Shown here: in pieces, positions 2,889 through 26,766 of the stretch | How positions within the stretch are numbered: position 1 is the first letter of the stretch | Layout of the letters: every line of letters begins with the position of its first letter | Origin: a virus | Lineage: Duplodnaviria; Caudoviricetes | IMG/VR virus record: IMGVR_UViG_3300042807_000447 | Span: 1 to 34,029 of that record | Length of the DNA stretch: 34,029 bases | Reading direction: 5' to 3' (one strand) | Notes under the pieces: model-generated | Database searches by the model: none | What the model saw: the letters and a program-made list of their open reading frames with translations, nothing else | Told to the model about the DNA's origin: nothing | Made by a program: the position numbers and the translations under genes

Positions 2889-4868
2889 ATGTCAGTTGAG
2901 CTTGGATCTGGCTTTGCGGCTGAGTATCGCTACTTCACCACGGACCTAGTTAGCAACACACTTATCGCAGAGATTCCATTTAACGGAGTCTCCTATGAAC
3001 GTGCAATCAAGGGTGCAGGAAAGTTTAGCGGCAACGTTCCAGTTATTGACCGAACAACTGCGTTTAACATCTATGACGCAACCATGCCAGGAAAGACTGG
3101 CCTATACATTACTCGCAACGGCGAGTGTGTCTGGGGCGGAATTATCTGGTCACGTAACTACAACCTTGTCTCACAGGAACTTGACGTTGACGCGGCCGAG
3201 TTCACAAGTTACTTCTACCACCGTCGTATCTGGAAGACGTGGACACACGAGTATGGCGCAACCCTTGTTGTGTCTGGTGGAGTTGCAACCGTAAACCTTG
3301 ACCCTGGATTTCAGTTTAACTCAGTTGCTGGTTCACTCGTGCGTGTTATCTTCCGCGAGGTTAGCAACTTTAGGTATAACGGCGAGTACACGATAACTGC
3401 AAGACTAAGCAGCACTTCATTTACATTTAGCGCTGGAAGTATTCCAAATGGAACATACCCGCTAACAACGATCTACGCACGTGTTGATACCTACGACTAC
3501 ATCCGCAGTCTCATTGACGCGGTATCCGTTGACTTCACTGGCATCGAGTTTCCAAACGCGGACATCGAGCCTGGACTAGGACTTCGTTTTACCGTAACAA
3601 ACAAGCGCATTGCTAGTGGACAGGCAACGTTAACAACATCTCAGCCACATAACGTTAACCCTGGACAGGTTGTTCTTATTCGCAACGTAGATGCCACGTT
3701 TAACGGGCAGTACATTGTTACCGCGACTCCAAGTGCCACAGAGATCCAATATGCCAAGACAGGCTCGCTAGGTTCTACAGCGGTAAGCGTGAACACCAAG
3801 ACAGTCGTAACGAAGCTACTCTCAAACTACGTGGCAACACTTACTACAGCAACGGTGCACGGCTTCTCAGTTGGGCAGGAGGTTGTTATCTCCGGAGTTG
3901 ACGACGCAAACAGCCCATCTGAGATCTTCAACGGCGAGTTCATCATCACCGCTGCGACAAGCAATACCTTTAGTTATCTAACAGGTGGAGTTACCAACGT
4001 GCCATCAACCAGCGTAAACCCTGGTGCAACGGCAGTCGTGACACCATACGTTCTCTCAGGTTCATACGGACCTTACTCCGCGAACTCTGATATCCAAATT
4101 GAGTTTAACGATGATGGCTTCTCTGGCGTCGCGGCTGAGCCACTCGTGTACCGCGGGTTTGAGATCAAGAACGTTGGCAAGGAACTAGACGTCTACTCTG
4201 ATTCCATTGATGGTTTTGAGTATCGCGTTGATTGCTTCTATGACCCAGGAAGCGCGTCATTTAGACGTGAGTTTATGTTTTTGCCTATTGACTTCCCTAA
4301 CCCTCCTGCTCCAGGTGAGATCTCGCCGATCTCACGATTTGGCGCTGATCAGCTTGTCTTTGAGTACCCAGGAAACATTACCGATATTCAGATCGATGAA
4401 AAGGCAGATGACGCGGCAACACGTTTTTGGATGGTTGGTAACATTCCTGACCTTGGCGACGATGCATCCCAGCCATACGCGGCAGCGGCAGCAACCGATC
4501 TTTTGTTACAAGGTTGGCCTCTTCTTGAGGAGGACGACAGCGCAGATGACGTTTCAGATGAACGAACTCTCTACGAAGGTGCAACCCGCTTCCTTAGCGA
4601 GTTTAGACCGCCAATTGGCGACATCAAGATAACCGTAAACGGTTCACTATCACCAACGGTTGGCTCATACGCTCCAGGTGACTGGTGCTCAATTATTGCC
4701 GACGACGAGTTCGTGAAGATGCGTCTAGCGTCAGATCTTGAACCTCGCGACACCGTTATTGTGCGTAAGATTGACTCCATAAAGGTAAGCGTTCCAGACT
4801 CTCCAACGTTTCCGGAGAAGGTAACACTTGATCTAATTGCGGAGTGGGAGGTGGACAAGCGTGGCTAG
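2889..4868 (+). CDS. Minor tail / baseplate hub-like protein with inserted beta-rich modules
   Basis: Follows Dit. N-terminal RNGECVWGGIIWSR motif of siphovirus Gp37-like tail proteins, with about three internal T-x-T-x-x-x-H-x-x-x-x-G-x-x-V-x-I...FNG-x-[YF]-x-[IV]T modules. RBS GGAGGT upstream. Confidence 0.75.
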   Translation: MSVELGSGFAAEYRYFTTDLVSNTLIAEIPFNGVSYERAIKGAGKFSGNVPVIDRTTAFNIYDATMPGKTGLYITRNGECVWGGIIWSRNYNLVSQELDVDAAEFTSYFYHRRIWKTWTHEYGATLVVSGGVATVNLDPGFQFNSVAGSLVRVIFREVSNFRYNGEYTITARLSSTSFTFSAGSIPNGTYPLTTIYARVDTYDYIRSLIDAVSVDFTGIEFPNADIEPGLGLRFTVTNKRIASGQATLTTSQPHNVNPGQVVLIRNVDATFNGQYIVTATPSATEIQYAKTGSLGSTAVSVNTKTVVTKLLSNYVATLTTATVHGFSVGQEVVISGVDDANSPSEIFNGEFIITAATSNTFSYLTGGVTNVPSTSVNPGATAVVTPYVLSGSYGPYSANSDIQIEFNDDGFSGVAAEPLVYRGFEIKNVGKELDVYSDSIDGFEYRVDCFYDPGSASFRREFMFLPIDFPNPPAPGEISPISRFGADQLVFEYPGNITDIQIDEKADDAATRFWMVGNIPDLGDDASQPYAAAAATDLLLQGWPLLEEDDSADDVSDERTLYEGATRFLSEFRPPIGDIKITVNGSLSPTVGSYAPGDWCSIIADDEFVKMRLASDLEPRDTVIVRKIDSIKVSVPDSPTFPEKVTLDLIAEWEVDKRG

Positions 4869-6669
4869 TCGTCGTTTTCGTGCACGTCGCTCGTTAGGTA
4901 ACAACCTAAACGATACCGCGATGCGTCTTGCCTATCTCGAGAAGCGCCCGTCTCCAAAGCGTCTTAAGCCTCAGGTTGTAACTACCGACAAGATCTATCG
5001 TGCAGCAATTGTCACAGACACTATCGCAAACACCGCCGTTGTTGAGGAAAAGATCCAGACCAACGCGGTATCTACTCGTACCATTGATGAGTTTGCTGTT
5101 ACAAACTCAGAGGTTGCTGACAGCGCGGTAAACAACCGCACCATTGAGACTGACGCGATTGACGCTCGTGTAATTCGTGCTAACGCAATTACCGCAAGTG
5201 AAATTAGCGCAGACGCCATTACCGCTGGAAAGATTAGCGCAGATGCCATTACGGCGCGCGAGATTGCGGCTAACGCCATTACCGCAAACGAGCTAAGCGC
5301 CAACTCAATCATTGCTGGAAAGATCAGCGCGGACGCGATTACCTCCCGTGAGATCAGCGCCAATGCCATCACGGCAAGTGAAATTAGCGCGGACGCAATT
5401 ACCGCGGGTAAGATATCAGCGGATGCAATTACTTCTAGAGAGATCTCGGCTAACGCCATTACCGCGACAGAGATTAGCGCCAACGCGATTACCGCGGGCA
5501 AGATATCTGCCGACGCGATTACCGCGCGTGAAATTAGTGCCAATGCGATTACCGCAGCAGAAATTAGTGCCAACGCAATTACTGCCGAGGAAATTAGTGC
5601 TAACGCAATTACCGCGGGTAAGATCTCAGCGGACGCGATTACGGCACGAGAGATCGCAGCTAATGCGATTACTGCTGCCGAGATCCAAGCAAACGCAATT
5701 ACCGTTGACAAGATCTCAGCCAACTCAATCACAACAGGCAAGATCATCTCAACGGGAATTAGCGCTAACGTTCTTACGTCTGGAAGAATTGACGCCAACA
5801 CCATCAGCGTCACAAACATAAATGCGTCCAACATTGAGACCGGTATTCTCTCTGGTAGAACAGTTAGAACTACAAGCGGCAGCAACCGCGTTGAGATGTC
5901 AAATACCGATGAGCTTCGCTACTATGTAAGTGGAGCCGTGCAAGCAAGAATGGAACCAACTGGTATTGGTGTTCGCATCAGTAGCGGCAGCGGAAACGTG
6001 TTTGTTGGTGGCGGACTTATTCAGCTTAACGCCGGAAACTCGGTGTTTTCAGCATCTGCCACTGCTCCAAAAGCTGCATTTCCTTTTGTCACAGACGGTG
6101 GACTTCAAGTTGGAGGCGGTCTTAGAGTAAACGGCACTAGCCTTACTTTTCCAAGTGGTCTAGGGCCTGCGCAGTCGTTTGCCGCGGTTGGACAACTTCT
6201 TGGTCTAGCGGGTGGCATCTCAGTAGTAGCAGTAACAAAACCTGCTTCGTTATCGGGACCTCCAGGACCTCCTGGACCAACTGGACCAACTGGACCTAAG
6301 GGTCCTCCTGGTCCTCCTGGTCCTCCATCGGATGCTCGTCTTAAGACAGCAGTGTCACCTGCATCTCTTGGCTTGTCGTTTATCAACATGCTTCGCCCGG
6401 TTTCGTTTGAGTGGAAAGACTCAAAGTACGAGGTTGGTGCTGGAACGCAATACGGTCTTATCGCACAGGAAGTTGAAGCTGCGCTAAGCAAGGCCGGTGG
6501 AAAGAACTACGGTCTTGTCTACAACAACAAGAACGAGTATCTAACAACAGAGCAAGGAACACAGGAACCTGTAAAAGGTCTTGACTACTACCAGCTTATC
6601 TCCCCTGTCATCAAGTCAATCCAGGAGCTTGATGCACGTGTAACCGCACTGGAATCTGAAAGGAAGTAA
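4861..6669 (+). CDS. Tail fibre protein with 10-aa repeats, short collagen segment and C-terminal intramolecular chaperone (peptidase S74)
   Basis: GTG start at 4861 after GGGAGGTGG. ANAITAxEIS repeats, (GPx)8, then SDARLK...LRPVSFEWK...YGLIAQEVE...LDYYQLISPVIKSIQEL, the S74 chaperone signature. Confidence 0.85.
   Translation: MASRRFRARRSLGNNLNDTAMRLAYLEKRPSPKRLKPQVVTTDKIYRAAIVTDTIANTAVVEEKIQTNAVSTRTIDEFAVTNSEVADSAVNNRTIETDAIDARVIRANAITASEISADAITAGKISADAITAREIAANAITANELSANSIIAGKISADAITSREISANAITASEISADAITAGKISADAITSREISANAITATEISANAITAGKISADAITAREISANAITAAEISANAITAEEISANAITAGKISADAITAREIAANAITAAEIQANAITVDKISANSITTGKIISTGISANVLTSGRIDANTISVTNINASNIETGILSGRTVRTTSGSNRVEMSNTDELRYYVSGAVQARMEPTGIGVRISSGSGNVFVGGGLIQLNAGNSVFSASATAPKAAFPFVTDGGLQVGGGLRVNGTSLTFPSGLGPAQSFAAVGQLLGLAGGISVVAVTKPASLSGPPGPPGPTGPTGPKGPPGPPGPPSDARLKTAVSPASLGLSFINMLRPVSFEWKDSKYEVGAGTQYGLIAQEVEAALSKAGGKNYGLVYNNKNEYLTTEQGTQEPVKGLDYYQLISPVIKSIQELDARVTALESERK
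5179..5748 (+). repeat. About 19 tandem 30-bp coding repeats (A[ND]AIT[AS]xx[IL]S)
   Basis: Directly visible in protein and DNA; synonymous positions differ between copies. Confidence 0.95.
6256..6327 (+). repeat. Collagen-like (Gly-Pro-X)8 coding repeat
   Basis: [24 protein letters not shown] directly before SDARLK. Confidence 0.9.
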
Positions 6670-7106: not shown

Positions 7107-7577
7107 ATGTTTGAGGTAAAAGACGGCACCCGTACTTTACAGTTCAAAGGTAAAGAGCTTGCCAAGTCGTCGTCATGGCGTCGCGGTTCAACACGATGGA
7201 TCGAGTTTGAGCTGTACAAGACTGAAAGCGGCTCTTACATTCTTTCACGTGTCGGCATCTCGCTTGTCTATCACGGAGCTGCCTGCCCACTTGTTTCACG
7301 CTATGGTCTTACCGAGGTTCAGGTTAAAGAGCTGCAAAGTGACTCCATTCCGTGTGAGATCTGTAATGCAATGCCTGACGCTCAACTTATCTTCCCGGAG
7401 AAGCCAAGATACTGGGCACAGGTAAGCGAGGAGGCTACCGCCGTGCTTGAGGCTTTATATAAGTACGACGACGGCGGTGCACGTTATCTTACTCGAGTTG
7501 CTGAACGACTTCTTGAGGATGCCTCAGACGTTGACAGTGGCATTGAGGCAGTATACAGGATCGAGCTTATTCCATAA
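7107..7577 (+). CDS. Hypothetical phage protein (possible metal-binding H...C...CxxC)
   Basis: 156-aa ORF with a GGGAG RBS; contains HGAAC and CEIC. Confidence 0.75.
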   Translation: MFEVKDGTRTLQFKGKELAKSSSWRRGSTRWIEFELYKTESGSYILSRVGISLVYHGAACPLVSRYGLTEVQVKELQSDSIPCEICNAMPDAQLIFPEKPRYWAQVSEEATAVLEALYKYDDGGARYLTRVAERLLEDASDVDSGIEAVYRIELIP

Positions 7578-7624: not shown

Positions 7625-8644
7625 ATGTTTATAGTTATTGAAGGCACGGACGCCTCAGGTAAGTCATCGCTTATCGAGGCAGTTCGGCAACAGCTTATAG
7701 AACGCTACCCTAACGAGCAACTGTCAGAGTTTCACAAGGGCAAGCCTGGCGAGGAGACTCGCCGCTGGGTTCTAAACGACTACGTTACGTCAATTGAAAA
7801 GCGCAACTGGTTGCGCTCCGTTGGTCTATCAGATCGTTGGCACTGGGGCGAGGTAACATACGCTCCAAAGTATCGCCCACACACAAACAACGATGGCTAC
7901 GGTTTACTTGGCAAGGCTGGCTGGCGCTGGGTTGAGCTGTTTCTTATGTCCCGTGGTGTTGCCCAATTTTGGCTTTATCAACCCTTAGAAGTGATCCAAG
8001 CGCGTCTAGAAGCCCGCGGAGATGAGTTCGTAAAGACCGATGACCTGCAGGAAATACTTGCACAATACGTTACCGCGTCTAACGTTTCTGTTCTTTCCGA
8101 CATCCTAAAACCAGACAGCGACAGCGTTGAACAGATACCAGCACTCGCAACCTACATAATTGACGTTGCTGGCCAGGTTGAAGAGTGCGCACGTCATCTT
8201 GAGCTATTCCCGTATTACATCGGAAACCCTAAGCCTAAGGTTCTACTCGTTGGCGACACACGCAATATAACTAAACGTTATGGCGAGGAAACTACCCTAC
8301 CTTTTATGCCAGTCGATGGCAACTCCGCAGAGTATCTACTTACCTCGCTGCCTGACGATCTCTGGCGCGACTGTGGAATCGTAAACATAAACGACCCAGA
8401 CGTCAAGCTTTCATTCAATGCTCTATGGAACCAACTAGGTTTCCCAAAGATAGTTGTACTCGGGCGTCTTGCCGAGAAGACACTGGCATCAATCCCAGTG
8501 GCTGAAGACTACTACACCGTGTTGCCTCACCCGCAATATGTGCGTAGGTTCTTTAACAAGACAAAGGAAGAATACGGACAGGCAATCGCACGGGTTGCCA
8601 ACGGCGAGACAAAAGGTAAGGAAGAGACATGGACACTGCGGTAA
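7625..8644 (+). CDS. Thymidylate-kinase-like dNMP kinase fused to a uracil-DNA-glycosylase-fold domain
   Basis: N-terminus has the IVIEGTDASGKSS P-loop, DRW motif and RLEARGDE lid. C-terminus has PKVLLVGDTRN, LPF, IVVLGRLA and LPHPQY, matching the UDG superfamily motif order. Confidence 0.75.
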   Translation: MFIVIEGTDASGKSSLIEAVRQQLIERYPNEQLSEFHKGKPGEETRRWVLNDYVTSIEKRNWLRSVGLSDRWHWGEVTYAPKYRPHTNNDGYGLLGKAGWRWVELFLMSRGVAQFWLYQPLEVIQARLEARGDEFVKTDDLQEILAQYVTASNVSVLSDILKPDSDSVEQIPALATYIIDVAGQVEECARHLELFPYYIGNPKPKVLLVGDTRNITKRYGEETTLPFMPVDGNSAEYLLTSLPDDLWRDCGIVNINDPDVKLSFNALWNQLGFPKIVVLGRLAEKTLASIPVAEDYYTVLPHPQYVRRFFNKTKEEYGQAIARVANGETKGKEETWTLR

Positions 8645-9492
8645 TTGAAATTAAGGACGGCGTCAACGGATATGTTGACCTAGTTCAGCACGTTTTGCGA
8701 CATGGCAAGGAGGTTGCTCCGCGCGGTCAAAAGACGCTTGAAATCGAAGATGCAATTATTCGCATTGACGACGTATACAACACTCTGCCAATGAACGTAA
8801 AGCGTAAGGCAGTCCCAGGTATCGGTGCCGTTGAGGCGTGTCAGCTTCTATCTGGCACGAGCTTCCCTGATCTTGTAATGATGGTTGGCCCACAGTTTAA
8901 GAACTACGCTGAGGATAACGGTGTGTTTCATGGAGCATACGGACCTCGCACAAATGGGCAGTACCACGCAGTTATTGAGCGTCTAAAGAATGACCCGGAC
9001 TCACGTCAGGCAGTCGTTACTATCTGGAATCCACAGTATGACCTTCAGTGGAACAAGCGTGATTATCCTTGCACGATCCTGCACCAGTTCCGTATCCGTG
9101 ACAACAAGTTGAACATGAGCGTTTACATGCGCTCAAACGATGTTTGGCTTGGTGCAGCCTATGACTTCTTCCAGTTTACACGCGTGCAGATCGCAATGGC
9201 ATCTGTCCTCGGAATTGAGCCTGGCAAGTATGCTCACCACGTTGGATCACTGCATATCTACGAGCAGCACTACGGCGTGGCTGAAGAACTAAAGTACACC
9301 GACAAGTTTACTGACATTCCTGTTATTACAGGACGCACATGGAACGAGGTTCAGTCAAGCTCTGTTCTTGCTCTGCATGGCAGCGTTGATCCAACCGCAT
9401 ATGTGCGTCTAACTGAAAACGAGAAATGGTACGCCGATGCAATGAAGGATGCCATCGAGAAGAACAAGGCTAAGGAACAGAATGACAAGTAA
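8629..9492 (+). CDS. Thymidylate synthase homologue, predicted dCMP-modifying (dCMP hydroxymethylase-like)
   Basis: AYGPR, DSRQAV, catalytic PC (C148), MRSNDVWLGAAYD with Asp179 at the base-specificity position, and GSLHIY. Confidence 0.8.
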   Translation: MDTAVIEIKDGVNGYVDLVQHVLRHGKEVAPRGQKTLEIEDAIIRIDDVYNTLPMNVKRKAVPGIGAVEACQLLSGTSFPDLVMMVGPQFKNYAEDNGVFHGAYGPRTNGQYHAVIERLKNDPDSRQAVVTIWNPQYDLQWNKRDYPCTILHQFRIRDNKLNMSVYMRSNDVWLGAAYDFFQFTRVQIAMASVLGIEPGKYAHHVGSLHIYEQHYGVAEELKYTDKFTDIPVITGRTWNEVQSSSVLALHGSVDPTAYVRLTENEKWYADAMKDAIEKNKAKEQNDK

Positions 9493-9664
9493 CCAGGATA
9501 TTCCGCAGTCCAGCGGAATAAGCGAGCTAAAGGTTGCGGCGATACAACTTCATGAAATGTACATGGAGTTTCGCGGCGCTGGTTTTACTCGTAGGGAAGC
9601 CTTATACCTTGTTGGAATAATTGTAGTTGAAGGGTCAGCAAAAGACAACGATGAGCGAAACTAA
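9482..9664 (+). CDS. Small hypothetical protein
   Basis: ATG at 9482 after AAGGA; overlaps both neighbours. The LHEMYMEFRGAGFTRREAL pattern resembles small actinophage proteins. Confidence 0.65.
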   Translation: MTSNQDIPQSSGISELKVAAIQLHEMYMEFRGAGFTRREALYLVGIIVVEGSAKDNDERN

Positions 9665-10130
9665 CACACCGCGTCCTTCCTGGGACAGCACCTGGATGCA
9701 TGTAGCTGAGACAATAGCTAAGCGTTCACGTTGTACCCGTGCGCAGGTTGGTGCAGTTGTAGTGTCTAGTCAACAGCGCATTAGCTCAACTGGGTACAAC
9801 GGTGCACCTGCTGGTTGGCCACATCAAAGCGACTGCATTGACTGGTGCCCACGCGCTAAAGGCGATGCCCCACTTGATCAGTTCTACGACGCGTGTCCAG
9901 CAATCCATGCTGAGGCAAACGCACTTCTATACGTAGATCGTTCTCAGGTCGAGGGTGGAACAATATATGTCACAGGTGCGTGTTGCATGCAGTGTGCAAA
10001 GCTCGTATCTAACTCAGGCGTATCACGCGTTGTCATGAAGGTGCGCAAGATCGACAAGCACCGTCACCCTGAAGAGGTTGTTGCATTTTTAGCTAAGTCA
10101 GGTTTAAGGGTGGAGACTATTGATGACTGA
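9651..10130 (+). CDS. dCMP deaminase (zinc-dependent cytidine deaminase fold)
   Basis: RPSWD, AKRSRC, VGAVVV, STGYNG, HAEANAL and CMQC motifs. Confidence 0.92.
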   Translation: MSETNTPRPSWDSTWMHVAETIAKRSRCTRAQVGAVVVSSQQRISSTGYNGAPAGWPHQSDCIDWCPRAKGDAPLDQFYDACPAIHAEANALLYVDRSQVEGGTIYVTGACCMQCAKLVSNSGVSRVVMKVRKIDKHRHPEEVVAFLAKSGLRVETIDD

Positions 10131-11946
10131 TGGTTTAGGTGATGTAAAACTCCACCTTGTAAACAACGTTGAGGAAGCACAAAACTTTCTGCGTTGGCTA
10201 GGTGAGCGTCGTCCACACAACGCTATTGCTATTGACACTGAAACTGGTGAAAATCCAGGAGGTGCTCGTAAGGATGCGCTTTCTCCATGGCACGGGCAAC
10301 TACGTCTAGTCCAGGTTGGTGATGGGCAGCAAGGTTGGTCAATTCCATGGAAGGAATGGTCAGGTGTTTTCTACGAGGCAATGAACAAGTTTGATGGACC
10401 CGTTGTCTGTCACAACATTGCGTTTGAGGCGCGTTGGTTTGATGTTCACTCGCACTGGAAGATGCCGTGGGAACGCGCACACGACACAATGATTATGGCG
10501 CACATCATTGACCCACTTGGTTCTGGTGCACTAAAGAACCTTGCGGCTTTGCACGTTGATGGTCGCGCAGTTGCATTACAGGAAACACTTGATATTGAAC
10601 TAGCAAAGAACGGCTGGACATGGGGAACTGTGCCTGTAGAGTTTCAACCGTACTGGGCATACGGTGCACTTGACACAGTTCTAACAATGCGCCTATGGGA
10701 AATGTTCTACGAGAAGTGCGGTCCTAACGGCGCATATCATCGCCCATATGAACTTGAAATGGCTGCCCGTAAGATCGTTACCCGCATGGAGATCAACGGC
10801 GCACGCATTGACCTCGATTACTCTAAGAAGAAGTTTGAAGAACTAAGCACATATGCCGATACGGTAAAGAACTGGGCAAAGCAAACCTATGGTGGTGTCT
10901 CGATTGGCAGCAACCAGCAACTAGTGCGCCTGCTTGAAAAGCTTGGTGCAGAGATTAACTCATACACGCCTTCTGGTCAAAAATCAGCCGACAAGGACGA
11001 GCTAAAGTTTCTTAGCATCAACGGTTCTCCTGAGGTTCAGCAGCTTGCGGATCTTGTTCTAAAGCAGCGCAAGGCTGACAAGCTTGCCAACACTTACTTT
11101 GCAAACTTTATCAACGATAACGTTGATGGCTTTGTGCACCCATCAGTAAAGACCCTTGGTGCTCGCACATCGCGTATGTCGATCCAAAACCCTGCACTAC
11201 AGACATTGCCTAAGGGTGACGACACGGTTCGTACCGCGTTTATTCCAAAGGACGAGGATCACGTCATTATTACGTCTGACCTTGACCAGGTTGAGTTTAG
11301 AATGTTTGCGTCATTGTCACAGGACCCAAATCTCATCACCTTGTTTAATCGCGCTGACGCGACTGGCTCAGATCCGTTTACCGAGATTGGTCGCGAGATC
11401 TATCAAGATCCAACAATGCAACGTTCTGATAAGCGACGCAATCTTATCAAGGGAACGGTATATGGACGTCTCTATGGTGCAGGCGTATCAAAGCAGGCAC
11501 TAACCGCAGGTGTACCTGAAGGACAGATGCGCACCGTATCTGACGCGTTTGATGAGCGTTTCCCAGGCATGTCGTTCTTCCAAAAACAAATTGAAGATGC
11601 AGGCATGCGCCGTCTAAAGTCTGAAGGACAAGGATATGTGTACACATGGACAGGTCGTCGCATTCCTTGTGACGAGGATCGTGCATACACGCTTGTCAAC
11701 TATCTAATTCAAGGTGGAGCCGCCGAGGTGTTCAAGCAAAACCTTATAAAGCTTGACGCAGCAGATCTAACAGAACTGCTAATCGTCCCGGTACACGATG
11801 AAATTGTTCTTAACGCACCACGTAAGGACGCTCATGAAATCATGCAAGTCGTGAAGGAATGCATGACTACAACCGAAGGCTGGGCAGTACCTCTTACTTC
11901 TGGCATTGATGGACCAATGGAAAACTGGGGAGAAAAATACAGATGA
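10123..11946 (+). CDS. polA: DNA polymerase family A with 3'-5' exonuclease, no 5'-3' exonuclease domain
   Basis: Exo motifs IDTET, HNIAFE and YGALD. Polymerase motif A DLDQVEFR, motif B RNLIKGTVYGRLYG, NYLIQG, and motif C VHDE. Confidence 0.95.
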   Translation: MTDGLGDVKLHLVNNVEEAQNFLRWLGERRPHNAIAIDTETGENPGGARKDALSPWHGQLRLVQVGDGQQGWSIPWKEWSGVFYEAMNKFDGPVVCHNIAFEARWFDVHSHWKMPWERAHDTMIMAHIIDPLGSGALKNLAALHVDGRAVALQETLDIELAKNGWTWGTVPVEFQPYWAYGALDTVLTMRLWEMFYEKCGPNGAYHRPYELEMAARKIVTRMEINGARIDLDYSKKKFEELSTYADTVKNWAKQTYGGVSIGSNQQLVRLLEKLGAEINSYTPSGQKSADKDELKFLSINGSPEVQQLADLVLKQRKADKLANTYFANFINDNVDGFVHPSVKTLGARTSRMSIQNPALQTLPKGDDTVRTAFIPKDEDHVIITSDLDQVEFRMFASLSQDPNLITLFNRADATGSDPFTEIGREIYQDPTMQRSDKRRNLIKGTVYGRLYGAGVSKQALTAGVPEGQMRTVSDAFDERFPGMSFFQKQIEDAGMRRLKSEGQGYVYTWTGRRIPCDEDRAYTLVNYLIQGGAAEVFKQNLIKLDAADLTELLIVPVHDEIVLNAPRKDAHEIMQVVKECMTTTEGWAVPLTSGIDGPMENWGEKYR

Positions 11947-16688: not shown

Positions 16689-17900
16689 ATGAAAATCTTA
16701 ATGACAGGCTTTACGGCCTTACAGATCAACACGGAACGACGCACAATACAAAAGATTGACGTTCCTGCGCATGTCGCAAAGGCAATGCAAGACCTCGGTC
16801 ACGAGATTGATTGGCGTAAGGTCACACCTGGCGAGGACCTGTCAGGTTACGACATGGCTTGGATAAATCTTGCACCACTAAACTCGCTAAACGGACGTCA
16901 AGGTGCGATGGGTGCACTTTACACTTTATCTTCAGGATTACCTGCGGTCGGATTTTTTGACGACTGGCAGTTCAACACAGTTTTCAATGGCGCAAAGGCT
17001 CTTATGCGCAAACCGCAGATGCTGTATAAGCACCTTCTTGTTGGCACGGAACATCGCGGTGAAGAGGGCGCAACTTACTTTAGTCGTGCAGATATTGAGG
17101 CAGCGCTTGAGCGTGTCCGTGAGAAGGACCCAGAGGCTGCTAAGAAATGCTACATCGAGCGTTACTACATGATGGACACTGATGAAAGCGTCAAGCCTTA
17201 CGAAAAACAACTAGTGCAGACAGCGATTGACATGCTTGACGCACGTTGGGCTGCTGGTATGGTTCCAGTTTGCCCGATGTATGCGTGGGGTGATAGAACA
17301 GGTGTGCGCAAACGTATGCCAAAGGACGTTGGTCGTATCGAGGCACTTGACCCTACCAGCGTTGTGTTTGACACGCTTGCGGCGGTAACACCAACTCCGC
17401 CAGAGAAGAAGGAAAAGGCTTGGGTACTTGGCGCGTTGATGCCACATGATACTTGGCTTGAAAAGAAAAACCCAGGTTGGCCGGTTGAGATCGTTGGCAG
17501 TCGTAAGCTAATCCGCAAACTTGGTGGACAGCGTCTTGACACAGAGCTTGACGTTCTAAACTTCTACAATGACCGTTGGGGAATTCTGTCACCACCGTAT
17601 CCACATGCTGGTTCAGGCTGGTGGCGTTCACGATTCCTATATGCTGCGCGCATTGGTTCTATTCTTGTCACTGACAAGGGTGAGGGCGATCCGCTAGGTG
17701 ACGCGTATAAGCTAACAATTGCTGACGTTGAAAAGATGAATACCGAGGAACTGGCAGCTGCTGCACAGGCGCAGGCTGACGCATTGCGCCCATACATTGG
17801 AACATACGACATGTTCAAGGATCACATACAGAACATTCTTACTCGTACCATGCAAGAAGACAGAGGACTAAAGCTAAACGCGGATGGAACTAGAGCATGA
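16689..17900 (+). CDS. Putative GT-B fold glycosyltransferase 1 (candidate DNA base glycosyltransferase)
   Basis: Rossmann-like start MKILMTG...AMQDLGHEIDW, FFDDW, and C-terminal GILSPPY...WWRSRFLYAARIGSILVTD resembling the GT-B C-domain R-x-x-x-A-x-x-x-G...TD pattern. Confidence 0.6.
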   Translation: MKILMTGFTALQINTERRTIQKIDVPAHVAKAMQDLGHEIDWRKVTPGEDLSGYDMAWINLAPLNSLNGRQGAMGALYTLSSGLPAVGFFDDWQFNTVFNGAKALMRKPQMLYKHLLVGTEHRGEEGATYFSRADIEAALERVREKDPEAAKKCYIERYYMMDTDESVKPYEKQLVQTAIDMLDARWAAGMVPVCPMYAWGDRTGVRKRMPKDVGRIEALDPTSVVFDTLAAVTPTPPEKKEKAWVLGALMPHDTWLEKKNPGWPVEIVGSRKLIRKLGGQRLDTELDVLNFYNDRWGILSPPYPHAGSGWWRSRFLYAARIGSILVTDKGEGDPLGDAYKLTIADVEKMNTEELAAAAQAQADALRPYIGTYDMFKDHIQNILTRTMQEDRGLKLNADGTRA

Positions 17901-18940
17901 AAAAGATACTTATAACTGGAATGTCCGCGTCACAGGCATCACTAAACGCCAATAGACGCTCGCTTTCCTTTGCAGGTGTAATTCATGATGTTCTTGTTGA
18001 ATCAGGACACGAGGTCGTCATGTGTGACCCACGTGTTAGCTGGTCACTTGAAGACGTTGAAGAATACTCTGCGGTGATTGTTGGTGTCTCACCGATAACA
18101 AGTCTTAGCGCAAACAAGGCATATGGTGCACTAAACCTAATTGACCTTCTGTGGGAAGATCCGCGCCTACGCCTATTAGTTGACGCACCGCACCCGGCAC
18201 AGATAAGTGCCAGTCTACGGTCGGTGCATACTAACCCGGCAAACCTCACTAAGCCTTTTTACACATACCGCCAGGGATATCAGTTAGCTGCCAGCGAAAG
18301 TGTCTCTAGGAGGCTTCTAGGGACAGTAGACAGGCTTCTAAACGATACCTGGCCAGGAACAATCTACCCATCGTTGCCTTGGCGCGATTCATTCCTTGTG
18401 TCTGATGAATTGCCTGCTGGAGCTCGAAGCGGGATAATTGGAATAAATCTAGACTCATTTCTTGTGGCTGAAAGCGCGCCAAAAGGCGACGTTGAAAAGA
18501 TTGCTAAGTGGGTAGCGGACAACAGGACATCTGCCTGGACAAAGAAGGTTGAAAAAACACTTGCACTTCCAGTATCGCCAATGAAACACACGAAGGGTGA
18601 AGATGATAGACAGGTTAGCAGTCAAATTCTGCGATCTGTTGGATCACTGATTTCGCCACACAGGGACGGGACATGGTGGACATATCGCTACATCCAGTCA
18701 CTAAACCTCGGTGTTCCCGTTGCGACTGACTGGAAGGAAAGCCAGCACATTGGTAATTCATGGAGTGTTCTTGCGGCAACAATTGAACACCTAAGTGACG
18801 GTGCGCGACGCGATCTTGCGTGGGATCAGTTGCAGGATTACATGTCGGCAATTCCGCGACGTGAAAATGTTAGAAAGACGCTTGAAGATCTGCTAGGTCT
18901 TCATTCCAAAATAGGAAAGGAAGCATATGCTGTTCGATAG
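17897..18940 (+). CDS. Putative GT-B fold glycosyltransferase 2 (paralogue of the upstream gene)
   Basis: MKKILITG...LVESGHEVV, SPITSL...GAL, and GSLISPH...WWTYRYIQSLNLGVPVATD align with the upstream protein. Confidence 0.6.
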   Translation: MKKILITGMSASQASLNANRRSLSFAGVIHDVLVESGHEVVMCDPRVSWSLEDVEEYSAVIVGVSPITSLSANKAYGALNLIDLLWEDPRLRLLVDAPHPAQISASLRSVHTNPANLTKPFYTYRQGYQLAASESVSRRLLGTVDRLLNDTWPGTIYPSLPWRDSFLVSDELPAGARSGIIGINLDSFLVAESAPKGDVEKIAKWVADNRTSAWTKKVEKTLALPVSPMKHTKGEDDRQVSSQILRSVGSLISPHRDGTWWTYRYIQSLNLGVPVATDWKESQHIGNSWSVLAATIEHLSDGARRDLAWDQLQDYMSAIPRRENVRKTLEDLLGLHSKIGKEAYAVR

Positions 18941-19409
18941 TTGGTTACGCAGAACAAAGGATCTTCAGAGAGATGTTTACTTCATCAACTATGAAGAGAT
19001 GGAGGGCGATAAGGACGCAAATATCCGTCGCCTTGTCGAGTACATGCGGTGGAACATGCTAGCCATTGATGACGAACTCGCAGAGATGCGTCAGGCAATC
19101 TCGTGGAAGCCTTGGCAGCACGACAAACCATACGCAGATCGCGAAGAGATCATCAAGGAAGCGGTTGACGTTTTACACTTTGTCGCAAACATCATTGTTG
19201 CGGCTGGTGGAACAGACGAGCAACTAAACAAGTTCTACGTTGAGAAGATGGAAAAGAACAGGCAACGTCAACTCAATGGTTATAAGGTAAAAGAGATCGG
19301 CGTCAAGTGTGGCATCTGCTCACGCGCAATTGACGACGTAGGTGAAGGCAGACGCCTCGGTGTTTGCGCAAAGTGTGAGCCAATAATCGAAGGAGAAACA
19401 AATGCCTAA
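18927..19409 (+). CDS. All-alpha dNTP pyrophosphatase (dimeric dUTPase / dCTPase-like) with C-terminal zinc ribbon
   Basis: DDELAEM...WKPW...KEAVDVLHF...YVEKMEKNRQRQ family motifs; C-terminal CGIC...CAKC. Confidence 0.85.
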   Translation: MLFDSWLRRTKDLQRDVYFINYEEMEGDKDANIRRLVEYMRWNMLAIDDELAEMRQAISWKPWQHDKPYADREEIIKEAVDVLHFVANIIVAAGGTDEQLNKFYVEKMEKNRQRQLNGYKVKEIGVKCGICSRAIDDVGEGRRLGVCAKCEPIIEGETNA

Positions 19410-20396: not shown

Positions 20397-21668
20397 ATGA
20401 GCAACCCTACTTTTGTTGACTGTAATGGCTTAGCTGGGTTTATGAGTCTTGGGCTTATCAAGTCCGGAATGCAAATGGTTGGTCGCACAGGTACGCTGAA
20501 CTTTGGTAACCCGCTTGCTGAGGCAAACAGAAACTACCTTGGAAACCAGTGGGGAACGTTCTTTAGCGATGACTCAGACGAGTGGCCAGTACACAAGGTT
20601 GACGTTGTTGCTGGTTGTCCTCCATGCTCTGGCTGGTCTGTATGGTCAGGTCCTGCAAATCGCGGTCCTGATTCTGCGGCGCACGAGCACACGCGTGCGT
20701 TCATGCGCTATGCCGCAAGAGTAAAGCCTAAGATGATTGCCTTTGAGTGTGTGCAGCCCGCGTACACAACTGGGCGTGCGGTTATGGTTAAGTACCGCGA
20801 CATGGTCGAGGAACTGTCAGGCAAGAAGTACGACCTATACCACGTCAAACATAACAACCTTCAGCTTGGTGGATTCTCATATCGACCTCGCTACTTCTGG
20901 GTAGCAGTTGAATCCGGAATGAAGTTTGGCGCTGCGGTGACAGAACCAACTCGGCTTCCACGTATCATGGACATCATCGGTGATCTTGCAAAGCTTCCAC
21001 AGACATGGAATCCGCAGCCGTACCTAGACGAACCTGGTCCATACGTAAAACACCTAAAGTCAAAGACCGGAACAGTCAACGGTCACATTGGTAAGGAAAG
21101 TATTCACACCCAAAGAATCCAGGAAGTGTTTGATCTTATTGGCAACACTGGTTGGCCAGGCAACGGTGATCTTGGATCTGCGGTGAAGAAGGCCGTTGAC
21201 ATGAACGGCGGAAAGTTTCCACAGAAGTGGATTGACATTGAGCCACGCCTACGCCGCCGCGACTTTAAGCTAGGTTTCTCCCAGCCGTATCGCTGGAAGG
21301 AAGATCACTGGTGTAACGTGCTAACAGGCTCCGCGCTCGAGGGTGTAATTCACCCAACGGAACCAAGACTTATTACACACCGTGAGGCTGCACGCATGCA
21401 AGGCTTACCTGACGACTGGGACATTGAAGGTGCAAAGGATTACTCAAGCCTAAAGGCTGTATGGGGCAAGGCTGTTCCATTGCAGGCTGCCACATGGCTT
21501 GGAGAGGCTCTCACTGCCTCCCTGAGCGGACAACCTAACGGTGACCAAGGTGAACTAATCGGCGAGCGCGAATACCTATTAGACCTTGATAAGGGCTTTT
21601 CTCGACATGCGGTGAAAAGAAAGTACTACCCTGAGGCAATTGAAACCGTGGTGCCAAGTGACAAGTGA
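20397..21668 (+). CDS. Divergent DNA C5-cytosine methyltransferase homologue with altered cofactor-binding motifs
   Basis: Motif IV GCPPCSGWS, motif VI FECV, motif VIII YRPRYFW, motif IX RLITHREAARMQGLPD, motif X WGKAVP; motif I degenerate (DCNGLAGF). Confidence 0.85.
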   Translation: MSNPTFVDCNGLAGFMSLGLIKSGMQMVGRTGTLNFGNPLAEANRNYLGNQWGTFFSDDSDEWPVHKVDVVAGCPPCSGWSVWSGPANRGPDSAAHEHTRAFMRYAARVKPKMIAFECVQPAYTTGRAVMVKYRDMVEELSGKKYDLYHVKHNNLQLGGFSYRPRYFWVAVESGMKFGAAVTEPTRLPRIMDIIGDLAKLPQTWNPQPYLDEPGPYVKHLKSKTGTVNGHIGKESIHTQRIQEVFDLIGNTGWPGNGDLGSAVKKAVDMNGGKFPQKWIDIEPRLRRRDFKLGFSQPYRWKEDHWCNVLTGSALEGVIHPTEPRLITHREAARMQGLPDDWDIEGAKDYSSLKAVWGKAVPLQAATWLGEALTASLSGQPNGDQGELIGEREYLLDLDKGFSRHAVKRKYYPEAIETVVPSDK

Positions 21669-22649: not shown

Positions 22650-22991
22650 GTGCGAGACTCTAGAGCAGGTGAAACCCTGTGGCGTGAATGGACCGGTGAA
22701 GGCTTTGAGCCTGCTGGCCAAACCTCCGTTGTGTTCTATACAGATGAACACGTTGACGTTGAACACGAGGTAGTCCGACGCGCTCTTGCGTCGGCGCTAC
22801 AGCGAGACGGATCCGCTGTCTCGTTAGGTGAAGGGTTTGGCGCCATCGACAACGGAGTCATTACACAGGGTTACGCAGGTACAGTTGACGGATCAACTGA
22901 GCTGTACTACTGTGATGAAGACGGAGAAACCGAGCACGGAGACTTGGTAGATGACCTAACCCCGGTTACGTGGGTTGAGGTCTTAATTTGA
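22650..22991 (+). CDS. Acidic hypothetical protein, probably leaderless GTG start
   Basis: The ORF track starts at 22578, but TACAAT at 22638-22643 sits 6 nt before an in-frame GTG at 22650 that has no RBS. Confidence 0.6.
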   Translation: MRDSRAGETLWREWTGEGFEPAGQTSVVFYTDEHVDVEHEVVRRALASALQRDGSAVSLGEGFGAIDNGVITQGYAGTVDGSTELYYCDEDGETEHGDLVDDLTPVTWVEVLI

Positions 22992-23524
22992 CAAAACATA
23001 CTGATCTAAGTTGGCAAAAAGGCGCGGTTTGCGCACAGCCACAAAATGAAGAAATTCGCGATTACTTTTTCTCAACGGTGCCCGCTGAGAAGTATCAAGC
23101 AAAGAACTTATGTTTCGAGTGCCCTGTTCGCAAGGACTGTTTAAAGTGGGCTCTAGAGAATCGTCAGATCTGGGGAATCTGGGGTGGACGCGATGAAGGT
23201 GAGATGCGTCGCGCGCTTAGCGTTTCATGGAACGGACAGGAGTCTCGTCGTCAACGTTATCCACAGTGCCCATATTGCATGGCACGACCAAATAAGCTTG
23301 AAACGCTAACTGTTCCTGTTCCTGGTGGTGGACGTTGGGCAACCATGCGTCTTGTTCATTGCACCGCATGTGACTTTACCTGGCGCTCACGAACAAGCGC
23401 TAACGCAGTTGATGCATACCACGTAGATCGAGTTGAGCGCTTAGAGCGTCAAGCTCGCGAGAAAGCTAAGAAGAAGCTTCGGGCTGAGCAGCGACGTAAA
23501 AAGAAAGATTTGAAGAAAGCCTAG
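22988..23524 (+). CDS. whiB: WhiB-family transcription factor with C-terminal zinc ribbon and basic tail
   Basis: W...AVC...FF...AKNLCFECPVRKDCLKWAL...GIWGG WhiB signature; additional CPYC...CTAC. Confidence 0.9.
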   Translation: MTKHTDLSWQKGAVCAQPQNEEIRDYFFSTVPAEKYQAKNLCFECPVRKDCLKWALENRQIWGIWGGRDEGEMRRALSVSWNGQESRRQRYPQCPYCMARPNKLETLTVPVPGGGRWATMRLVHCTACDFTWRSRTSANAVDAYHVDRVERLERQAREKAKKKLRAEQRRKKKDLKKA

Positions 23525-24542
23525 TCTTTTCTTCCTCTGGTGCAAGATCAACTGCAATACGACCGTGTTCTAACGCCTCGTCAAACTTGCCTAGACGAAA
23601 CGCGGCAATTGCCAACATGTCGTGTGGAGTATATCCCCACGACTCGGCCTCGTTAAGATACTCAAGCGGGCGTTCCTTAATTGCTAATGCTGCATGAGCT
23701 GCAGCGTAGCACTTTTCCCAGTCGCTTGTAGAGTAGTAGTACTTTGCAAGATCAACGTGCGGTTCGCGGCGTCCAGGTGACTGTTCAATTGCGCGCTCGC
23801 ACCAATACTCTGTCTTGCCCTGCTCGATCTTTGCGAGGTAGCGCATCGAGGCTGCTCGCTCTGGCGGCCAAACTGCACGTGGAAGAGCTAGGTGACGCTT
23901 AAACTCGATTGCCGCTTCGTCCCAACGGTTATAGAAATACAACTCGCGTGCGTAGTAGAACGCGTTGCGGTCATCGTGGGGATCCTCATCAACTGCAAAC
24001 TTTAACAGTGGAAGATACTGTGAACGTGGCTTAGTGTTATCGGCGTGGTGGTGGATCTTTAGACCAGTCCAACCTTCAGTCTGTTGCGTGTCACCGTAGG
24101 TTGTAAGAACCTCGTGAACCGGGTGCTTCCAGCGATAGCCAAAACGCTTGTGGATCTTGTCTCCACCATAGATTAGTCCCGGTGAGCCGTCTGCGTTCCA
24201 TGACCAGGTATATTCGTAACGCGGACGCGTCCAACCCTCTCTATGGGCCTTCTCGAGCTCTTCTCGCCATCCCGGGAGCAGCACCTCGTCCATGTCTAAC
24301 GCAATGCAATAGTCAATGTCAGCAGGTAGTGCAGCAAGCGACGCGTTGCGCGCCATGTCAAAACGCCAAGGCTTTACTACGACGTCAACAACGTTGATAC
24401 CAAGATTCTTGGCTGCCTCAATGGTGCCGTCAGTGGAGCCAGTATCTGCTATCAAAAGATAGTCAGCTTCCTTTGCAGACTCATACCACGGCTGAACAAA
24501 CTGCAACTCATTGAGTGCAATTGTGTATATCGCTACCTTCAT
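23466..24542 (-). CDS. Family 2 (GT-A) glycosyltransferase with C-terminal TPR repeats
   Basis: YTIALNE, DTGSTDGT, FDMARN, LDMDE (DxD), WKHPVHE, then TPR-like helices (FYYARELY, DLAKYYY). Confidence 0.9.
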   Translation of the reverse strand: MKVAIYTIALNELQFVQPWYESAKEADYLLIADTGSTDGTIEAAKNLGINVVDVVVKPWRFDMARNASLAALPADIDYCIALDMDEVLLPGWREELEKAHREGWTRPRYEYTWSWNADGSPGLIYGGDKIHKRFGYRWKHPVHEVLTTYGDTQQTEGWTGLKIHHHADNTKPRSQYLPLLKFAVDEDPHDDRNAFYYARELYFYNRWDEAAIEFKRHLALPRAVWPPERAASMRYLAKIEQGKTEYWCERAIEQSPGRREPHVDLAKYYYSTSDWEKCYAAAHAALAIKERPLEYLNEAESWGYTPHDMLAIAAFRLGKFDEALEHGRIAVDLAPEEEKTRLSSNLSFYVAAQPEASS

Positions 24543-24563
24543 ATGTCTCTCCCAGGTCTTGTG

Positions 24564-24818
24564 TTAAGCTTTGTCTGTGTCTACTTCTTCTGACTTTGTC
24601 TCTGGATCTGTGGATTCTTCTGTATCTCCACTGTAAACTTGAACTGTGTCTTTTAGTCTAACCTTGCGCTGGCTAATGTACCCGCCATCACGATCTAGTT
24701 TTTCTTTTGCTTCAGCCTCAGTACGCGCAAATATCTGAATAACCATCTTTACTTCATATGTGAAGCAGCGGGTTTCCATGTTATTTACTAGTTCTTCTAA
24801 GCTATCTTTCTCGGTCAT
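24564..24818 (-). CDS. Small hypothetical protein
   Basis: 84-aa ORF with a GAAAGG RBS and an upstream TAGGAT -10-like element. Confidence 0.65.
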   Translation of the reverse strand: MTEKDSLEELVNNMETRCFTYEVKMVIQIFARTEAEAKEKLDRDGGYISQRKVRLKDTVQVYSGDTEESTDPETKSEEVDTDKA

Positions 24819-24872
24819 TGCGTACCTTTCTTCGTTGGTGTCTTACGTAACATATCCTATACTATAGAAGTC

Positions 24873-25490
24873 CTAATATGGTGTAGATCCACTAAAACTA
24901 TCGTGGGCAGTTCCTGTCCAAAAGCCGGTGTCTCCATCAAAGTATGTTCCCGCGGTATCGCCTTTTTCAACCATGACGTCGTCAACGTAGAAGATATCTC
25001 CGCTTGTGGTAGATGCGGTCACGATACGGAAATTAAGGAAGTTTGCTGTGGCTGCCTTGGTGATTGTGCCTGAAAGTCGTACCCAGTTTCCAGTTACCGA
25101 TAGGCTTTGGATTCCAAGGTTTCCAGATGCAACTGTTGGTCCACCGATGTTTTCATATTGCAGTTGACGAATTGAGTAGTTTGCAGTTGTTGCGCCAGTT
25201 TCTAGCTTTACATACGCACTGATTGTGTAGAAGCCGCTACCAGCAACAAGAGGTAGGTTTGAGTATTGCGCCGCTGAGGCAGAAGAATTGACAACCTTTA
25301 GTGACGCAACACCACTACGATAGTTTACTGTGTCACGACTAAGAGTGGCGCCAGCAACGGCAGACCAACCTGCTGTGTCTACCTCAAATGCTGGATTTTC
25401 TACCCAGTTAGTTCTGTAACCAAGAAGGAAAGGTTCTGCAGGGTTCTTTAGATAACCTGCACCTGATACAACACCAAGACTAAGAGGCAT
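24873..25490 (-). CDS. Virion protein with carbohydrate-binding-module-like (CBM4/9-type) jelly roll
   Basis: NWVENPAFEVDTAGW...YTISAYVK...WVRLS...FYVDDVMVE...YFDG pattern common in actinophage minor tail proteins. Confidence 0.7.
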   Translation of the reverse strand: MPLSLGVVSGAGYLKNPAEPFLLGYRTNWVENPAFEVDTAGWSAVAGATLSRDTVNYRSGVASLKVVNSSASAAQYSNLPLVAGSGFYTISAYVKLETGATTANYSIRQLQYENIGGPTVASGNLGIQSLSVTGNWVRLSGTITKAATANFLNFRIVTASTTSGDIFYVDDVMVEKGDTAGTYFDGDTGFWTGTAHDSFSGSTPY

Positions 25491-25493
25491 CTT

Positions 25494-26762
25494 TTAATCT
25501 AACGCTAGGTCGCCGACAAGCAGCCACTCATCAGTACCAATTTTTACAACTGACGCAGTTGAGTATTGCGCACGTAGTTTTGCAGTCGGTGTCGCACGTA
25601 GTGTCACACCAGTGTCTGGCGCAACTGTTACCTGCCCTGCGCCGTACTGAAGAACGTCAACGCGTTGACCGATGCTAAATGCCTCGGCAGCGTTTGTTGG
25701 AATAAGAATCTGTGTTGCTGATCCGCTTGTGCATTTTAGCAGGTAGCCTGCATCTGCGGTGTCAAGCGTGTAGTTTGCTGACTTTGTTGAGATTGCCTGT
25801 GCAGTTGACCACGCACCTTCAGGCCCTGTTGGCCCTAGCGGTCCAGTTGGTCCTGTAACACTTGGTCCTGTTGGTCCAGTTGGACCAGTTGGACCAGTTA
25901 CAGTTGAAGCTGCGCCTGTCGCGCCGATAGGACCTGTAACTCCCGTTGGTCCCGTTGCTCCTGTCGGTCCTGTTGGACCTGTTGGTCCACCTGATGGTCC
26001 GGTTGGACCTTCAACACCAGTTGGTCCAGTTGCACCCGTTGGGCCTGTTATTCCTGGACCCGTAGGACCCGTAGGACCCGTGTCACCGACAAATGTGCCA
26101 GCATTTGCCCACTCGGAATTAAGATCAGACCAGATGTAAAGGTCTGTGCCAACAAGATACGCATCGCCGATGTTGCCAGTCGGATTATCAGACTGAAGAG
26201 ATGGCAAATCTAAATACGTGCCAAGAACGCTTACACCAGATCCTTGCGGTCCTGTTGGACCAGTAACACCTTGCGGACCAGCTAGCCCTGCTGGTCCTGT
26301 TGGACCAACAGGCGCGATGCTTGAAACAGTGCGAAAAGATGAACCTGTATAAACGTTAACATCGTCTGATGTACTGTCGATCCAGATGTCACCAACTTCT
26401 GGGAAACCTGGAGCTGTTGCCGCATATGTTAAGTTTGCGCGGCCTTCTTGCTCATAAGCAGCAGTTGCTGAAAATGCAGCAGTTGCAGTACTTGCAGCAA
26501 CGTAGATTTTGTCGCCAACCTGCATTGCAAATCTAAAAGTTTCAAAAGACTGGCCAACGCCAACAGTTAGGCTATTTACAATGTAAGCTCTTGCGTTTAC
26601 AGAACCTGGTGATTCTACAGGCTCGACGTATATTGTTGCACTGAGCTCGACTCCGCCGGTGTTAGCCACAATGACAGACGCGACGCACGTAACGTCAGCT
26701 GTAGCAAGTACAACACTGCTATTGGCTGCTGGAGTAGTAGCCCCAAGTCTTTTTACCGCCAT
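25494..26762 (-). CDS. Collagen-like fibre protein
   Basis: Extensive GPT repeats; C-terminal YTL...DAG...QYGAGQVT...LRAQYS...WLLVGDL domain typical of phage fibre ends. Confidence 0.8.
25818..26308 (-). repeat. Collagen-like Gly-Pro-Thr coding repeats in two blocks
   Basis: Interrupted (GPT)n tracts flanking a small globular insert. Confidence 0.9.
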
Positions 26763-26766
26763 GTCA

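Follow-up and report, generated by a model that had tools for sequence, protein, structure and literature searches.

Uracil-DNA glycosylases (UDGs) of family 4 carry a motif A of the form GE(A/G)PG and a motif B, HPAAVL (PMC4787834). An Asn at the site facing the Watson-Crick edge marks recognition of uracil-type bases, and Brig1, which cuts glucosyl-hmC, has a Glu there (PMC11078745). BdiUng, an enzyme without Fe-S, cuts both U and hydroxymethyluracil (hmU) through an open C5 cavity, hmU being shut out of Ung by Y66 (PMC5449639, PMC5295032). With regard to nucleotide modification, a YorR-like kinase adjoins a dCMP-modifying thymidylate synthase (TS) homologue in known modification clusters, those of RB69/DLP3 (PMC13326640, Table 1), and residue rules have been published for the TS family, according to which Asp177 indicates cytosine, position 143 separates hydroxymethylation from methylation and D169N gives a hydroxylase (PMC13326640, PMC8670742), this last change being the mark of 5-hydroxy-dCMP synthase (PMC13326640). 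It has also been reported that 5hmdU enters DNA in vivo through the action of TS-linked phage deaminases, in the T4 gp42/gp1 system (bioRxiv 2024.12.05.627091).

The DNA analysed here, called the window throughout, is a 34-kb fragment (34,029 nucleotides) of virus record IMGVR_UViG_3300042807_000447. It contains siphovirus tail genes, PolA, a SNF2 helicase and WhiB, and this last gene (22988-23524) indicates an actinobacterial host. A tail-fibre-like gene (4837-6669, plus strand) encodes decapeptide repeats, a collagen stretch and an endosialidase chaperone domain. Near-identical DNA has been found in subsurface, lake and freshwater metagenomes, none of its listed holders being an RNA dataset. 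Within the window lies an ORF in which a kinase is joined to a UDG-fold domain (Table 1).

Table 1. Positions of the fusion, its main residues and the predicted modification genes in the window.
Feature	Position	Strand	Basis
Kinase + minimal UDG-fold fusion ORF, 339 aa	7625..8644	+	ORF, relatives, AlphaFold2 model
YorR-like NMP kinase domain (residues 1-192), P-loop at 7643-7666; predicted hm-dCMP kinase	7625..8200	+	HMMER, structure match; substrate from context
Minimal family-4-derived UDG-fold domain without Fe-S loop (residues ~190-339)	8192..8644	+	Alignments, models
Motif A, G210-N214	8252-8266	+	Alignment
F227	8303-8305	+	Alignment
N254	8384-8386	+	Alignment
Motif B helix, H302-F309	8528-8551	+	Alignment
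TS homologue, predicted dCMP hydroxymethylase, D143/T147/D169/D177 (E. coli numbering)	8629..9492	+	MilA match, residue rules
dCMP deaminase family protein; may supply dUMP and hm-dU nucleotides	9627..10130	+	Family match
Family A DNA polymerase	10120..11946	+	Family match
Candidate DNA glycosyltransferase 1 (without Pfam match)	16689..17900	+	Relatives' annotation; look-alikes including T4 beta-glucosyltransferase cluster
Candidate DNA glycosyltransferase 2, apparent paralogue of glycosyltransferase 1	17897..18940	+	Look-alike
dUTPase_2-family pyrophosphatase, candidate dCTPase/dUTPase (T4 gp56 role inferred)	18927..19409	+	Family match

The fused ORF and its two domains

The fusion ORF encodes a P-loop, GTDASGKS (residues 7-14), and DRWHWGE (70-76), followed by LLVGDTRN (207-214), LPF (225-227), VVLGRLA (277-283) and LPHPQY (300-305). 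The original prediction of a P-loop kinase with a C-terminal UDG-fold domain stands, all the motifs it quoted being where it had placed them and the fold matching the UDG superfamily. Relatives of similar length amount to 409 of 4523 candidates and the fusion is present as a single ORF at 80 viral loci, which excludes an assembly or frame artefact. The AlphaFold2 model of the full protein (91 sequences) has a pLDDT of 94.8 and a pTM of 0.93, and the ORF is confirmed as a real two-domain protein. In phages, PolA is a known fusion partner of UDGs; in the literature searched, including the accessible text of PMC13697223 and PMC10201439, no description of a fusion to a kinase was found, although an earlier mention is possible, most likely in Iyer et al. 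2013 (NAR 41:7635).

The P-loop, the DR motif and the NMP-kinase fold that characterise YorR-like and TMPK-fold proteins are all found in residues 1-192. This half matches YorR of a B. subtilis prophage (2axp) with an E of 9e-9 in HMMER, and its model superposes on the same structure with Z 17.5 (rmsd 2.8, 169 aligned), YorR ranking above thymidylate kinases. Judging from gene context, it is most likely an hm-dCMP kinase, the substrate being proposed because the kinase stayed beside the hydroxymethylase after the fission described below.

The C-terminal half, of about 140 amino acids, is confirmed as a UDG fold at the level of predicted structure. Residues 190-339 modelled alone gave a pLDDT of 86, and the structure search with this model (VIA) retrieved the T. 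maritima family-4 enzyme 1l9g (Z 10.3, rmsd 3.9, 133 aligned), UdgX 6ail (Z 10.1), the family-5 enzyme 2d3y (Z 10.1) and the phiLo PolA-UDG (Z 9.3); the top 11 rows all belong to the UDG superfamily, and the first non-UDG row has Z 6.6. The best Foldseek match was the family-4 structure 1ui1 (E 2.5e-5). In sequence searches, the Pfam UDG model scored the fusion protein at E 0.0026, below the cut-off, and reached E<=0.1 in 19 of 68 members; no NCBIfam UDG model matched among these 68, and HMMER searches of the PDB with profiles of the fused C-terminal domain found no UDG. The profile of a stand-alone form of the domain reaches the T. thermophilus family-4 UDG 1ui0 weakly (E 0.04), with E41, F54 and N80 in register, and the stand-alone and fused domain alignments (A4 vs A6) are homologous (hhalign, 99.2%). 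Taking both results together, GDTRN is a derivative of the family-4 GE(A/G)PG, and the earlier statement that it fits no known family was too strong, since it aligns to family-4 motif A.

A search with the C-terminal profile gathered 1057 clusters at 50% identity (E<=0.001); among the best 150 of them, 130 are full length, and 129 of these begin with a P-loop. Conservation was counted over 151 rows (these 150 plus the window), which were picked by a profile of the same domain, a choice that favours conservation. With this reservation, G210 occurs in 150/150 non-gap rows, D/E211 in 148/150, F227 in 150/150, N254, H302 and P303 in 151/151 rows, and R308 in 150/151. The predicted domain thus holds the UDG pocket, that is, the motif-A Gly and acid, the stacking Phe, the Asn and the motif-B His; this His is, on structural grounds, equivalent to His 155 of 1ui0. 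The order of the motifs was reached in 0 of 100,000 shuffles, with a pattern itself derived from the family.

The family-4 signatures are replaced in the fusion protein by GDTRN and HPQYVRRF. Fused forms have a motif A GDxRG/N, in which position 4 is mostly Arg and not Pro, and stand-alone forms have GDRPG/GEQAS, GDRPG and GERPN being nearest to the family-4 motif. Instead of the four Cys of the family-4 4Fe-4S cluster, the whole protein has only C188 and C250, neither of them conserved, and it must therefore be without this cluster; the Fe-S loop is deleted, in agreement with the earlier observation that the Fe-S cysteines appear to be missing. This loss need not abolish activity, because BdiUng is active without Fe-S. 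The GLAPA motif A of family 5 and the KRRIH loop of UdgX are absent from all alignments, and the Brig1-type Glu at the Watson-Crick face was not found, the residue being Asn in 151/151 rows. Thus, the domain resembles a family-4 UDG yet departs from this family in motifs and Fe-S cysteines, and is predicted from its sequence to be a new superfamily variant.

Two further segments have also changed. The spacing between the Asn and the motif-B His is 42-48 residues vs 75 in 1ui0 (counted to His 155), about 30 residues being missing after N254, and the DNA-touching loop would therefore be gone. The motif-A loop that caps C5 has 11-28 amino acids and no conserved residue, and a Glu in register with family-4 E47, presumably the C5 gate, appears in 4-7 of 66 fused rows. 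The motif-B helix HPQxx[RK]RF is retained in 24/24 stand-alone proteins, and is similar to the part of motif B through which the active phiLo UDG touches DNA (PMC13697223).

Gene neighbourhood and relatives

The gene starting at 8629 overlaps the end of the fusion ORF by 16 nt. Although annotated as a thymidylate synthase, its best PDB match is the CMP hydroxymethylase MilA (E 8e-25), and its product has Asp177, a non-Leu residue at 143 and Asp169. It is thus a predicted dCMP hydroxymethylase, since D143/T147/D169/D177 fits the published residue rules. Three other assignments were considered and ruled out: canonical thymidylate synthase on active-site residues, dCMP methylase because a Leu143-type site is needed, and 5-hydroxy-dCMP synthase because D169N is needed.

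Around the fusion in 65 loci, many of them truncated (the window, DSL-LC01 and 63 others below 44% identity), a TS homologue occurs in 63, a deaminase in 57 and PolA in 51. The four-residue signature is present in 106/106 unique active-site stretches or loci, derived from 219 ORFs, of which five end at contig edges and four that escaped the pattern have D-x-P-C-T on visual inspection. The linkage of the homologues to modified-base clusters is thereby borne out, and the neighbourhood is predicted to follow the logic of the T4-like hmC pathway. In two loci (L269, L277) the fusion lies beside TS homologues with D169N and E143; deamination of 5-hydroxy-dCMP would also give a 5-substituted uracil.

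Other genes of this region deserve mention. In 43 of the 65 divergent loci, the fusion is immediately preceded by a gene which in the window encodes 156 aa (7107-7577, plus strand) without Pfam or PHROG match. A C5 cytosine methyltransferase-like gene (20397-21668, plus strand; Pfam E 6e-17) has altered motifs (DCNGLAGF, GCPPCSGWS, FECV) and sits, as in DSL-LC01, in a phage predicted to lack ordinary cytosine. A pyrimidine-dimer DNA glycosylase (PF03013; 21974-22501, plus strand) could process abasic sites; enzymes of this kind have AP-lyase activity. Among the relatives, L033 (11850-12893) and seven similar loci have a GT2-family glycosyltransferase inserted right after the hydroxymethylase gene, DSL-LC01 (23904-27049) has a UDP-galactopyranose mutase between two glycosyltransferase-like genes, which hints at galactofuranosyl-hmC, and others carry different glycosyltransferase families at the same slot. 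In L218 (840-2111) and L202 the hydroxymethylase is fused to an endonuclease VII domain.

The closest named relative is the freshwater Actinomycetia phage DSL-LC01, assembled from a metagenome, at 51% over the whole protein and with shared gene order. A pattern search of bacterial and archaeal genomes, able to find close relatives, gave three short matches, all to the kinase part; cellular copies are possible. A cassette of pyrophosphatase, kinase/UDG, hydroxymethylase and deaminase is found in the cultured phages AXL3 (gp29) and PW916 and in the uncultured ctUtU524. Of 37 restriction enzymes, 35, all with G/C in their sites, fail to cut AXL3 DNA, and the two that cut have A/T-only sites (PMC7504290), an indirect sign that the virion DNA may contain modified cytosine; in the accessible text of the same source gp29 is named a thymidylate kinase alone. 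The hydroxymethylase signature is present in all five distinct phage records with an intact domain among 50,697. The domain was found in 0/5 of Xp12 and PaMx74 (5mC), T4 (glucosyl-hmC), RL38J1 and SPO1, in a search that recovered its positive controls.

Seven of the eight complete actinophage-clade genomes tested are without a dTMP synthase of their own. Four complete relatives of ~130 kb (G025, G027, G028, G029) have a single TS-family gene, of the Asp type, with no ThyX found; as no dTMP synthase was found in these four, their dTMP would come from the host or by another route. In two further genomes (G002, G007) TGA stops lie within conserved matches, which could mean that the genetic code differs, that introns are present or that the genes are broken.

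A subfamily of 24 proteins consists of the UDG-fold domain alone. In the jumbo phage RsoM2USA, a lone 152-aa domain gene lies ~258 kb (record coordinates) from a hydroxymethylase, a deaminase, the kinase half and a T4-type glucosyltransferase. The stand-alone profile found 52 loci, and 24 genomes were tested: a TS-family gene is present in 18/24, and in 11/11 of those at least 90% complete. All seven near-complete jumbo genomes with a lone domain gene hold the D/T/D/D enzyme at least 85 kb away, together with an ordinary dTMP synthase (ThyA-like in six, ThyX in one). In these genomes the hydroxymethylase and the kinase half are 0.6-5.4 kb apart (one kinase match being weak, E 0.001). A quick tree groups 27 stand-alone sequences into a single clade (support 98) that lies within the fused forms, the 28th being a fused copy cut by the contig end, and one fission event rather than seven is therefore indicated. 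It appears that after fission the kinase remained close to the hydroxymethylase, whereas the UDG domain, now on its own, preserved its pocket. The fused form, the commonest, is probably the ancestral state; fusion would not be required for a glycosylase function, because jumbo phages carry the domain in a gene of its own.

The pocket has decayed in 5/142 non-redundant rows (Gordonia phage Forza, L063, L070, L114 and L123), in which kinase and hydroxymethylase persist; seven other flagged rows are pattern misses or a fragment. Alignment A4 holds 68 of 71 rows, three decayed ones having been left out, and because many of its loci were fetched with an HPQ-based pattern its motif-B counts are circular, the 151-row and stand-alone counts being used in their place. 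GC3 was rejected as a decay signal: the TS gene is lower than its top TS neighbour in 5/5 decayed lineages, but the comparison is with distant neighbours and is confounded by the hosts, and L063 does not differ from the rest of its neighbours.

Predicted role of the domain

Among the proposed roles, excision of hmU, and probably also of uracil, from phage hmC DNA is the best supported, and may be put tentatively at slightly below an even chance. According to this proposal, dCMP would be converted into hm-dCMP by the product of gene 8629 (following the published residue rules), and the kinase would then form hm-dCDP, with host NDP kinase, incorporation by PolA and glycosylation as the presumed later steps. 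hmU would arise by deamination of hmC in DNA, or through the phage deaminase acting on hm-dC nucleotides; not being removed by family-1 Ung, it would be cut out by the domain, and base-excision repair would act on the resulting abasic site. The fusion would co-produce the kinase and the putative glycosylase functions. The pocket of Asn, acid, Phe and His is kept next to a C5-cap loop free of conserved residues, and neither Xp12 nor PaMx74, 5mC phages in which deamination would yield T, has the domain. Glycosylation may shield hmU in mature DNA, and hmC phages can do without the domain, because T4 and RL38J1 lack it and it has decayed in five lineages.

A glycosylase restricted to uracil would fit the same pocket, all the canonical uracil-binding residues being kept. 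Flux through the dCTPase and the deaminase would raise dUTP, the domain then being the phage's own UDG for glycosylated-hmC DNA; the family-4 UDGs fused to PolA in phages remove dU but leave 5-substituted T intact (PMC13697223), and dUMP could build up in the seven of eight complete actinophage-clade genomes without dTMP synthase. However, this explanation, which we regard as rather unlikely, accounts neither for the loss of the conserved C5 gate nor for the absence of the domain from 5mC phages with TS and deaminase, and jumbo carriers with their own ThyA/ThyX still keep it. Less likely still is an N-glycosidase destroying free hm-dUMP/dUMP before the kinase feeds the dNTP pool. The prevalence of the kinase fusion, probably ancestral (129 of 130 full-length representatives among the best 150 of 1057 clusters), the deletion of the DNA-binding Fe-S loop and the crystallisation of UdgX with dUMP (title of 6ajp) agree with such an activity, which the original prediction had placed beside the kinase. 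This idea is weakened by the jumbo phages, where the domain survives at least 85 kb from the kinase with its pocket and basic helix intact, the invariant basic/aromatic motif-B helix being typical of DNA contact. Moreover, no enzyme with a UDG fold is known to us to use free dNMPs as substrates.

A non-catalytic role, in which the domain would sense dTTP, dUMP or hmU and regulate the kinase or tether it to the replication fork, is suggested by the tight two-domain model (pTM 0.93), by the inactive UDG domains of N4-like PolAs (PMC10201439) and by the decay of the domain in several lineages. We consider it improbable, because the catalytic acid, Asn and His are kept in 148-151 of 151 rows and also in the unfused gene, whereas the N4-like domains have lost them. 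The lowest probability of all is given to an attack on host DNA (on unmodified C, or on U made by the phage deaminase) or a base-exchange transferase, in spite of the strict link to self-modified genomes, of the conversion of UDG-fold Brig1 into a weapon (PMC11078745) and of the weak action of TS-linked deaminases on ssDNA (bioRxiv 2024.12.05.627091). The invariance of N254, where Brig1 has Glu, points to a uracil-type base and argues against attack on cytosine, and the earlier suggestion that unmodified host DNA is discriminated is for this reason disfavoured; for a transferase, the ~140-aa domain has no acceptor-binding extension.

Significance and comparison with known systems

With hmC in place of C, hmU takes over from U as the main spontaneous lesion, and family-1 Ung leaves it in place. 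The chances are about even for one of two readings: either phages with 5-hydroxymethyl- or 5-hydroxy-cytosine genomes have evolved a new minimal UDG family, free of Fe-S and dedicated to the repair of 5-substituted uracils in the manner of SMUG1, or the domain is the first with a UDG fold to use free nucleotides. Phages of this predicted type hold 1057 clusters of this tiny domain, and hmU repair is directly testable in the cultured AXL3 and PW916, with the decayed Forza as control. If hmU excision is true, an hmU-selective core of ~140 aa could be a reagent useful for hmC/hmU sequencing, and the domain gene would be a marker for cytosine-modified phage genomes.

The functional logic of the T4 glucosyl-hmC pathway (gp42, gp1, gp56, cd, glucosyltransferases) recurs in the window with a predicted hydroxymethylase, a dNMP kinase and a deaminase, and with candidates for the dCTPase and the glycosyltransferases, although the window has a YorR-like kinase and PolA, and T4 has no UDG domain. 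The kinases of SPbeta (YorR) and of the RB69/DLP3 clusters are alike in fold, P-loop and DR motif; in the accessible text of PMC13326640, no UDG domain is described on them and no substrate is established.

Family-4 UDGs (1ui0/1ui1, 1l9g) and UdgX resemble the domain in fold (Z ~10), motif-A Gly-acid pair, stacking Phe, Asn and motif-B His, whereas the domain is ~60 aa shorter, lacks the Fe-S cysteines and the KRRIH loop, and has a variable C5-cap loop, the HPQxx[RK]RF helix and the fusion to a kinase. Brig1 and BdiUng (Z 6.7) share with it the absence of Fe-S, a family-4-like fold and an altered base specificity; however, both are cellular, Brig1 having Glu at the Asn site and cutting glucosyl-hmC, and BdiUng having a family-1-like motif A. 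Finally, the PolA-fused UDGs of SPO1-like phages and phiLo/YerA41 are also UDG domains on a replication or nucleotide enzyme of pyrimidine-modified phages (PMC13697223, PMC10201439), but these are attached to a polymerase and occur in phages with modified thymine, where hmU must not be removed, whereas the domain described here belongs to cytosine-modified phages and is either joined to a kinase or encoded separately.
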